A stretch of 64,000 nucleotides of DNA, from assembly GCA_051294375.1 (NCBI GenBank), contig CM119270.1:19943160-20007159 (forward strand), given 5' to 3'. The stretch comes from Paraspadella gotoi (lineage: Eukaryota > Animalia > Chaetognatha). A program made the position numbers and the translations under genes. Shown one piece after another: positions 57,635 through 63,589 of the stretch. The notes beneath the pieces were generated by a model. That model did not search any database and was not told the origin of the DNA. It was given only the letters and a program-made list of their open reading frames with translations. Within the stretch, counting starts at the first letter, position 1. Each line of letters begins with the position of its first letter.

Positions 57635-59455
57635 ATGCCGGAAATGACGGAGGCGGAGCTGGAGAAGCTGGAGAAGAGATGCGAAGCGGTGAAGTCGACG
57701 CGACAGAAGATCGAAGAGGAAAACGAAAAGATGGAGTTGGAATTGAAAGACGCGAGATCCCAGTTGAATAAGATGACGGAGGGAAAGGGGAATTTTGAAC
57801 AGCAATTGGTGCAGGTGAATTCAATCAAGGTCGAGAGAATCAGACAGATGCATGAACCAATTTAGGGAAAGACGGACAGACTGACTCTGAGATAGGCCGT
57901 CCCATAATCAGAAAGACAAAAAGATAGAAAAACAGAAATAACAGTCGTGCCAAATACTTTTCAAACTCACCTGACCCTTACCTTTTTTATTTCACGTCAC
58001 ACTGCAATCCACGCGATTACACACTATTTTCTTCCCACACTTTTCGCCCACACTCTCTGCCGCGTACATTCTCTCACCACACCATCCCACACACACTCTC
58101 CCACCACAGCTGGACTTGGACGCCAACTCCAAACGCGTGGCGATGAAAGACGCAGAGAAAATGTTCAACCGCGAGAAGGAAGATCATCGGCGGGCGGTGG
58201 AGGACCTCAAGCAAATGGGGCGCGACCAGTTGCGCGCCTTGCAGAAGGTGGTCGAGTTGATTGCCGTGTGGTGGGAGAGGAAGAGGATTTAAAGGGGTGG
58301 GGTTGGCTGTTGTTGTTTGGAATTTAGATTTTTCATGTAGTAATAAGTTTGTTACATCTAGAGTGTTTAATAATGATTGGAATTAATTGGAATTATAATT
58401 ATAATAACGTTGATAATAATAATAATAATAATGATAATAATAATAATAATAATAATAATAATAATAATAATAATAATAATAATAATAATAATAATAATAA
58501 TAATATAGATAACTAAATACAATAATGCATTATAACAATGATACAATTACAACCCAATCGGTGCCATCAACGATTCATTCATTCATTCATTCATTCATTC
58601 ATTCATTCATTCATTCATTCATTCATTCATTCATTCATTCATTCATTCATTCATTCAATCATTCATATCCCTTCAGGACTTCGAGGCGGAAGAGCTTCGT
58701 CTTCGCGAATCCCTAGGCGACCTGGGAGTGATGGAGTTCAACACGGCTTCGCTGGGGCAAGACATCGTCAACATGCACAAGAGGATCGAGATACAAAAGG
58801 AACAAATGAGAATGGGACAAAGATTTGTGGAAAAGCTGGAGAAAGAAAAGAGAGAAGTGGAGGGGAATTATGATAAGGTGAGGGAGAGGGAGGGGAGGGA
58901 GAGAGTGGGAGTGAGAGAGGGAGAAGGAGAGAGAGAAGAAAGGAGGGAGGGGGGAGAGGGAGGGAGGGTGAGAGGGAGAAGTAGAGAGGGAGGGAGTCGG
59001 AGTGAGAGAGGGAGAAGAGGAGAAAAAGAGAGAGGAGGGAGGGAGAAAAAAAAGAAAGAAATAAAAAAGAAAGAAAGAAAGAAAGAAATGACTAAGACAA
59101 AAACGAGAAGAATAACCTGATTTTAGTTGTCGTCGTTGTTGTTGTTGTTGTTGTGATCATAATTCCTTCCCCCCCTCTCGCCCAAAAGGTTCGCCACGAT
59201 CTCGACGTGGCGCGGATGGACAACAACAAAGCTGAGACGGACAATCTGGAATTGCAGAACCAATTGTTGCCGGAAGCGAGAGCCCAATACCAGAGAGAGG
59301 CCAACCAGCGAGAGGAAGGAAGGCCCAAGCTCAAGAAGAAGAAGATCAAGAAGATTAAACCGGCGGAGGAAGAGTGGGAGGAAGAGGGAGGAAGAGGAGG
59401 AAGGAGGAAATGGGACGAGGACGAAGGAGATGAGATCCCGAGGAGGAGGAGATAA
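57635..59455 (+). CDS. Coiled-coil protein, paralogue A (261 aa, 4 exons), family unrecognised
   Basis: Phase-0 GT-AG exons 57635-57814, 58110-58247, 58677-58877 and 59189-59455 splice into one ORF (MPEMTEAELEKLEKR...QDIVNMHKRIEIQKEQ...AETDNLELQNQL...EEGRPK...RRRR*). It is E/K/R/Q-rich with heptads and aligns without gaps to gene B. Confidence 0.9.
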
Positions 59456-60563
59456 AAGGAGGAGAAGGGAGGAAAAGAGGGAGAAAGATAGGATGTTCAT
59501 GTTTTTGATGATAAGATAATAAACAAAAAAAGCTCAACCAATTTAATCGGAATTGCGAAGAAAAAAAGATTTTGTTTTTCGCCGCGTCCTTTCTTATAAT
59601 CGCAGACGACAAACGCTCAAAAAAGCCCTAAAAAGTTATAAATAGCTCAAAAATTAATTTAGTTTTTTTTTTTTTTTCGTTGAAGTCGTTTTTTTATGCC
59701 ATAAGTTATGGTGGTCTTTAATAGCCAGCAGAAAAAGAATTGTCAAAAATAACATCATTTTCAAGTTTATAAACACTATATTTCAAAGACATTTGTTTTC
59801 CTCAAAGGCTCAAGTAAAGACCGTCAAAAAACTACTTCAATGAACACAAAAAGTTTTGAACAAAAGCTTTTTAAAAATATTCTTAAAAAAACAACTCAGA
59901 TTTCGTCTTTTAAATTCTATAATTTTACTTTTGTTCAAAAATTCGCGTTATTTTGGTAATTTTGTTTCTCATTCGTTTAATTTTTGTTTTGTTCATTTGT
60001 TTTTGTTTGATCTCAAACGAGACAACTATGTCAAATAATTAAATTATATTTATTTATATACTTTATCAAACGGGTGGCAAAATATAAACAATTTTTTTTG
60101 CTTAACATAGTTGTAGATTAAATAATCTTTGATCCTAACACGAAACGCATTTTCTAGTCCCTCTCCAATGAGAATATATATTTTAATTTTAACTTTCAAC
60201 TAATTGTACGTTTACGGGCTCAAAAAATCGTTTTGAACAATAAATATCGAAAACATAATTTTGCTCAAAATGTCCGTTTTGTACAAATAATTTAGGCAAC
60301 TGCTGGAGGAGAGTGAGAGAGGAGGGAATCGAATTTCTTTCTCCAGATCGGCTCAATCCAATCGAGTCAAAGACTTTAAACTTCTTCCTCCCGTTCGGCT
60401 CGTCCAGACACGTCCGATCACTTTGAAGACCAACTCTTTCGAGGAGCGAAAAACCACCTGCCATTCATCGCCAGGACTCTCTTCCCCAATCTTCGGCAGA
60501 CCTAGTCACCGACACCTCTCTCAACCTTCTCGCCAACACCCTCTTCAAACCCTTTCGTTTAAA

Positions 60564-63500: not shown

Positions 63501-63589
63501 GCATCACGACGTCTTCGTCCAGGAGGAGGACAGAGAGAGAGATGAGCGTTCAGAGCGCCAGAGCGGCGAGGCAGCGAAACTACGAATGA
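60564..63589 (+). CDS. Coiled-coil protein, paralogue B (up to ~361 aa, 6 exons) with D/R/G/S-rich tail
   Basis: Exons 60564-60686, 61055-61237, 61692-61946, 62457-62701, 63036-63219 and 63493-63589. Introns 2 and 5 have GC donors. The last two exons read through only if one A near 63047 is removed; otherwise the ORF stops at 63048 (272 aa). Confidence 0.85.
62072..62205. repeat. 36-bp minisatellite (~3.5 units) in intron 3 of gene B
   Basis: GAATGAAGGAATGAACGACTGAATGAGTAGAGGAAT repeated. Confidence 0.85.

Follow-up and report, generated by a model that had tools for sequence, protein, structure and literature searches.

Two genes with predicted coiled-coil products, A and B, lie in tandem on the + strand of the window, by which we mean the whole 64,000-nucleotide stretch of DNA analysed. 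Gene A is read as four exons at 57635..57814 (codons 1-60), 58110..58247 (codons 61-106), 58677..58877 (codons 107-173) and 59189..59455 (to the stop codon), encoding a protein of 261 aa for which the family's C-terminal motif was not found. These are separated by a GT-AG intron of 295 nt after codon 60 (57815..58109), the sole site common to relatives, an intron of 429 nt after codon 106 containing TAA and CATT microsatellites (58248..58676) and an intron of 311 nt after codon 173 with an AAG acceptor and a 5-nt junction repeat (58878..59188).

Gene B opens with exons at 60564..60686 (codons 1-41), 61055..61237 (codons 42-102) and 61692..61946 (codons 103-187), followed by an exon at 62457..62701 encoding the end of the coiled coil, a basic cluster and a D/R/S-rich tail. 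The intervening introns measure 368 nt after codon 41 (60687..61054), 454 nt with GC-AG ends after codon 102 (61238..61691) and 510 nt with an AAG acceptor after codon 187 (61947..62456). Together with those of gene A they constitute the six core introns, referred to here as A1 to A3 and B1 to B3. Within B2 a 67-nt near-perfect palindrome is present at 61529-61595; palindromic insertions have been described in Spadella (PMC2997562).

Two further introns are predicted within the unalignable tail of gene B, both of them phase 2 in the gene model: intron 4 at 62702..63120, with an uncertain acceptor, and intron 5 at 63220..63492, with a GC donor. They flank a predicted exon 5 (63121..63219), and the last exon (63493..63589) supplies the family's conserved C-terminal motif and the stop codon. 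An intron 4 acceptor at 63120 keeps the frame while one at 63035 leads to a stop after 272 aa, and the frame is also kept if exon 5 is skipped. With two candidate acceptors (63035 and 63120) and a skippable exon within 62702-63219, three B tails are possible; the segment 63036-63120 is coding-like but in a frame not reached from the 62702 donor.

The two genes are 1,108 nt apart (59456-60563), with AATAAA at 59518 and 60239 and a pyrimidine-rich acceptor ending at 60346, upstream of gene B exon 1. This acceptor is a candidate UTR intron or trans-splice site, and A and B may possibly form a trans-spliced two-gene unit. Junctions of both genes were assigned from splice signals and the gapless alignment rather than from RNA reads; an RNA run over the first 2.1 kb of gene A gave no joint and a single 812-nt contig flanked on its two sides by sequence from gene B exon 3, and is uninformative on the junctions.

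Intron positions in the aligned paralogues

As the original prediction had it, proteins A and B align without a gap, over 225 residues of which 117 (52 %) are identical; the A/B diagonal scores 588 and the best of 28 other offsets scores 14. Also borne out were the intron positions (after codons 60, 106 and 173 in A and after 41, 102 and 187 in B), the phase 0 and preceding exonic AG of all six core introns and the AAG acceptors of A3 and B3. No gap falls within 5 residues of the six junctions in 17 homologues. A point absent from that prediction is the GC donor of B2 (AAG|gcaggc). A GT-AG model of this intron, after codon 105, is gapless too but was rejected because it would put Gly at a position occupied by L, I or M in 17/17 homologues; the mean BLOSUM sum is 5.2 for the GC-donor model versus -0.9 for the GT-AG model. 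Likewise rejected was the reading of A and B as haplotypes, given 52 % protein identity, equality at 11/26 four-fold sites and the presence of both genes in a second genome (below).

In the A and B reading frames phase 0 is found at 63-65 % of the AG sites and at 76-79 % of those reading AG|G, and six phase-0 introns out of six accordingly have a P of about 0.07-0.22. As most such sites in these frames are phase 0, the phase is no separate anomaly, and we rejected it as an independent signal since it is expected from codon content. Against an assumed background of 5-10 % for AAG acceptors, the two found among eight introns have a P of 0.06-0.19.

A coiled-coil family likely specific to arrow worms

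Homologues of A and B were found in environmental assemblies (6 and 22 proteins in the searches) and a profile search among 1.84 billion proteins returned 23 family members; in neither case was a member named as a known family. Both contigs examined (2/2), which belong to relatives of the window genes, open with 26 nt identical to SL2.0, the chaetognath spliced leader whose sequence is given in PMC2481426 (Table 3). Because the transcripts of relatives start with a chaetognath spliced leader the family is likely arrow-worm-specific, and these relatives suggest that the window comes from a chaetognath. In a structural model of the family protein P0005, residues 6-121 and 127-215 are helical, the tail is disordered and one more helix closes the chain. 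The earlier suggestion of an unrecognised, lineage-restricted coiled-coil family is thus supported by the family searches, the profile search, Pfam scans and the structural model.

The Pfam comparison does not favour membership of the intermediate filaments. The helical part of the family protein spans about 210 residues in the structural model, compared with 313 positions of the intermediate filament rod profile PF00038, which had no match at E 0.1 in 7/8 family proteins scanned; the distant P0058 reached 12.9 bits, against a cut-off of 40. On this Pfam result the proteins would not be assigned to the intermediate filaments. The rod end may resemble the lamin rod-end motif, a likeness that Pfam did not support. 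Every Pfam match on 8 exons fell below the cut-off, a PDB sequence search gave a single match at E 0.025, and Foldseek, proposed earlier as a check, gave no match. In structural searches, read for a likeness to intermediate filaments or lamins beyond that of long helices in general, all Z values were below 8 and unrelated coiled coils tied, and an Atlas comparison returned generic coiled-coil rows with ≤142 shared features. The proteins may reasonably be guessed to form a structural coiled coil, either dimeric or polymeric. Among the novel structural genes behind the body plan of arrow worms, this family is one candidate. Four distant Ala-rich members, P0058, P0062, P0066 and P0068, have 25-28 % identity to A and B and might serve as a family outgroup.

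Counterparts in a second genome

The protein P0005 is encoded by a second genome, B26, whose assembly is from an invertebrate and comprises 9 contigs; chaetognaths are reported to have 9 chromosomes (PMC12460157). B26 carries the same tandem order, an A-type gene (gene 1) followed about 6.5 kb downstream by the orthologue of B (gene 2), while a third paralogue (gene 3) lies on another contig. B and gene 2 are identical at 101/141 residues (72 %) and are grouped at UFBoot 96. Given the same tandem pair and the orthology of B and gene 2, the A/B duplication is older than the separation between these species, and so is an old one. The tree is without resolution for A, which gene order and intron 60 suggest is the orthologue of gene 1. 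P0005, a contiguous reading frame, matches gene 1 right through the gene 1 junctions. In the genome index, the whole A/B locus as query gave microsatellite matches only and B exon 3 gave two matches of 29-34 nt.

Gene 1 has introns after codons 60, 108 and 168, gene 2 after codons 21 and 94 and within 151 (21 and 151 known from acceptors only) and gene 3 after codon 147. Gene 2 was read over codons 22-94 and 151-231, with site 102 outside the read part, and gene 3 from codon 125. One of three introns, that after codon 60, is common to A and gene 1, and none of the five testable sites is common to B and gene 2: the orthologue of B is without the introns after codons 41 and 187, and its own site at codon 94 falls inside gene B exon 2. 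Of the five testable window introns four are absent from their B26 counterparts, and intron 60, present in both, is inherited. Several of the differing sites lie close together. Codon 106 of A and codon 108 of gene 1 are 6 nt apart, codon 173 of A and codon 168 of gene 1 are 15 nt apart, and codon 102 of B and codon 94 of gene 2 are 24 nt apart, this last pair being half-tested as 102 is unread in gene 2. Across the five genes, 13 introns occupy 12 distinct sites of which 11 are unshared. At the gene 2 intron within codon 151 (L010) the acceptor is again AAG, and 43 nt upstream of it lies a TAG acceptor.

Additional sites could be read from 26 short proteins, of which 17 break at a donor-like place, one shows an acceptor only and four have no break, the remaining four having been dropped as ambiguous or frameshifted. 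Merging five near-identical cases reduces the 17 donor-like breaks to 13, nine with Val after K/E/Q and four with Gly then K/Q. All three fragment-predicted sites testable in B26 DNA (60, 108 and 168) held. Read-through fragments add 7 sites, bringing the total to 19 in 675 nt with 10/18 neighbour gaps ≤30 nt. Within a clade of close relatives (UFBoot 100) fragments imply further site differences, P0051 having 133 without 108 and P0074 having 217 without 168. These fragments were read as protein sequences, and partly spliced RNA could mimic some of the absences. Fragments of the P0048 type were considered as B orthologues and rejected, as they group with gene 3 of B26 (UFBoot 95).

Probable repeated intron gain

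The original prediction saw in A and B a complete turnover of introns after duplication, for example through independent gain into an intronless ancestor. Independent gain is supported by the 12 sites among 13 introns and by pairs of sites 6, 15 and 24 nt apart, but a turnover confined to this particular duplication is not, as the B26 orthologues differ as much as the paralogues do and intron 60 is inherited. Gain is needed because holding all of the sites at once takes exons of 6-24 nt. Two introns separated by less than 32 nt are considered unlikely to have been present together, and such near pairs count as evidence of a new position (PMC2891723). Repeated gain of introns in this family, by whatever mechanism, is therefore highly probable in our judgement. 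Old introns may also have been lost, although the data fit too an ancestor with intron 60 alone in the A line, or one nearly free of introns whose descendants each acquired their own.

Local duplication of exon ends as a proposed mechanism

The reading we tentatively favour, and which could well be right, is that stretches of exon were duplicated locally, giving rise to introns at exonic AG sites again and again in different lineages. A stretch holding AG|GT or AG|GC would be duplicated in tandem, the first copy becoming the donor and the second the acceptor, and the intervening sequence would be spliced out with the codons unchanged. The new intron would later decay and fill with microsatellites. 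Such an origin would be expected to produce AAG acceptors resembling the end of the exon and, at Ala codons, GC donors. That introns can arise by tandem duplication has been described and demonstrated by experiment (PMC3443670).

An exonic AG precedes the donor in 15/15 donors read, and AG|GY junctions occur at 4/6 core introns versus 14/100 available sites (P 0.005). The column following the B2 GC donor is Ala in 14/17 homologues. A general protosplice bias toward such sites is known (PMC3488318), and it, like any process that duplicates the target, is compatible with the AG|GY junctions, the GC donors and the AAG acceptors, which would suit transposon target duplications equally well.

Four introns carry copies of the end of their upstream exon. 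In B26 there are 2 such copies in intron 60 of gene 1 and 4 in intron 108, reaching 97 % identity, with best E values of 1e-13 for intron 60 and 6e-41 for intron 108. Repeated copies of exon end plus donor (L003) lie on contig C1 at 9054976-9054650 and 9056166-9055870; as decoy donors they could give alternative splicing. Within the window, bases +12 to +62 of B2 resemble exon bases -72 to -22 (offset 83) as a decayed copy, and bases +5 to +26 of B3 match exon bases -48 to -27 at 18/22 positions (offset 52). Their scores were reached by 0/64 overlapping control segments under both schemes, and by 0-1/221 and 0/125 matched window pieces. Both matches had caught the eye before any test was applied; out of 32 tests per scheme, the best per-test P was 0.002 for B3 and 0.004 for B2, with a Fisher P of 0.009 over 8 introns. 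The signal is absent in 5/8 window introns and borderline in the purine-rich A3. Exon copies were not found in 5/7 B26 introns tested, nor acceptor-side copies in 6 B26 introns.

The register predicted at birth, in which the intron start equals the start of the next exon, gave 6.0 versus 5.6 matches of 20, no excess. As 4/6 of the B26 copies include the existing donor, these copies can postdate the intron. Local duplication is active at these junctions, although the copies attest to a frequent mutation and are not proof that it founded these introns; all of this evidence on mechanism comes from one gene family.

Alternative explanations

That the pattern is peculiar to a young lineage-specific family, conserved chaetognath genes being ordinary, is a serious possibility and compatible with the other alternatives. 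One family was examined and no conserved gene in the window is comparable. Against such a narrow scope, the ribosomal protein L36 and L40 paralogues of Spadella cephaloptera also have alternative intron positions (PMC2481426), as reported in 2008 for 2/2 amplified paralogue pairs. That report, in the passage concerned, is a remark on PCR markers from two genes in one species, with no evolutionary analysis alongside, whereas here orthologues across species differ too. By analogy the Spadella paralogues hint at a wider chaetognath pattern.

Gain through introner-type transposons, with a target duplication supplying one splice site and the element since decayed beyond recognition, is less likely though plausible. 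Introners are a leading described cause of mass intron gain and many of their families are without inverted repeats (PMC9860276). They resemble the present case in being lineage-specific introns at AG sites with splice sites possibly co-opted from the target (PMC9860276; for Micromonas and Fritillaria, PMC11282704), and AAG acceptors here occur only where the exon ends in AAG (2/4 versus 0/4). Among the introns compared here no repeated family, no inverted repeats and no clear locus-specific target duplication were seen. No terminal inverted repeat was detected in 8 introns (best P 0.035, others 0.17-1.0), and the motif TAGGG, present in a single core intron, is not accompanied there by a reverse partner. 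Junction repeats are only 3-5 nt, base -3 matches in 4/8, and junction matches of AG only are called ambiguous (PMC9860276). Matches of the introns within the 64-kb window consist of simple repeats and short pieces; 5/105 pairs among 15 introns match, all five through simple repeats. The all-against-all intron comparison over the window and these 15 introns thus found no repeated family and the introner signature offered in the original prediction is not supported, its AG and phase being the ordinary protosplice pattern.

Migration of a few ancestral introns, by sliding or by gain beside an old intron followed by loss of the latter, with the number staying near three, seems improbable. It would account for A and gene 1 differing by 2 and 5 codons (P 0.014-0.059 for independent placement), for the 8 codons separating B and gene 2 in the same CTCAAG context and for near-pair distances that are all multiples of three, and the junction-spanning copies offer a possible route. 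The remaining offsets, however, are 20-36 codons or involve a phase change, the residues between paired sites are still alignable to homologues, and P0050, P0051 and P0074 cross these zones without an intron. Paired introns also have no common sequence beyond simple repeats, a test limited by deep divergence. Differential loss from an intron-dense ancestor with zero gain, left standing insofar as no outgroup gene of known structure was found and polarity is hence not direct, is very improbable, as 675 nt would have had to accommodate 12 to 19 introns, with exons as short as 6-24 nt between them, and the losses would have to be almost complementary.

Relation to known cases of intron turnover

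Oikopleura (PMC4122922) and Fritillaria (PMC11282704) are already known for a high turnover of introns. In the animal Oikopleura dioica, too, the majority of introns sit at new positions (76 % of the 5,589 mapped), and donors other than GT are tolerated (PMC4122922). There the introns, minute and with GA-AG ends, have prompted a proposal of reverse splicing (PMC4122922), whereas those described here are 270-1,150 nt, microsatellite-rich and GT/GC-AG, in one family only. Discordant orthologue positions less than 32 nt apart at AG|GY protosplice sites have been described in Drosophila, with sliding, or duplication in tandem at AG/GY sites, given as their source (PMC2891723). Drosophila yielded 31-36 near pairs among 12,386 orthologue sets (PMC2891723), against two proven and one half-tested pair in two orthologue comparisons here, at deeper divergence. 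Lineage-specific tandem expansion is also a feature of the chaetognath-specific duplicates and novel genes described in PMC12460157, with trans-spliced relatives as in this family; the comparison of duplicates presented there concerns intron numbers, not positions. Among the matches listed, which leave subscription papers uncovered, no study beyond the 2008 remark addresses the evolution of intron positions in chaetognaths.

How new introns come about is an old problem, still unsolved, and there are few animal lineages in which gain is rapid enough to be studied. It is plausible, if less likely than not, that arrow worms are an unrecognised phylum-wide hotspot of continuing intron birth at near-canonical sites, with exon-end duplication a main source. 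Were this so, most positions would be lineage-specific as in Oikopleura, and introns would appear and shift between close species. If the rate in this family is general, chaetognaths, for which chromosome-level genomes exist, would supply many young introns, in which the predictions of duplication, transposon and sliding models differ and can be counted. Such a rate would also be a warning against relying on intron positions or homology-based gene models in chaetognaths.

Other features of the window

Large duplicated segments, 90-98 % identical and several of them inverted, occur in the window. They are 17532-19774 with 19908-22147, 36358-38562 with 43897-46115, 27497-28799 with 41918-43257 and 33966-36338 with 38636-43947. 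Lying near N gaps they are either recent duplications or uncollapsed haplotypes. A gene at 47343-48143 (+) contains an exon with an LDL-receptor class A domain (Pfam E 0.0013, below the cut-off) followed by a cluster of basic residues, and we take it to resemble the prohormone-4-type neuropeptide precursors.
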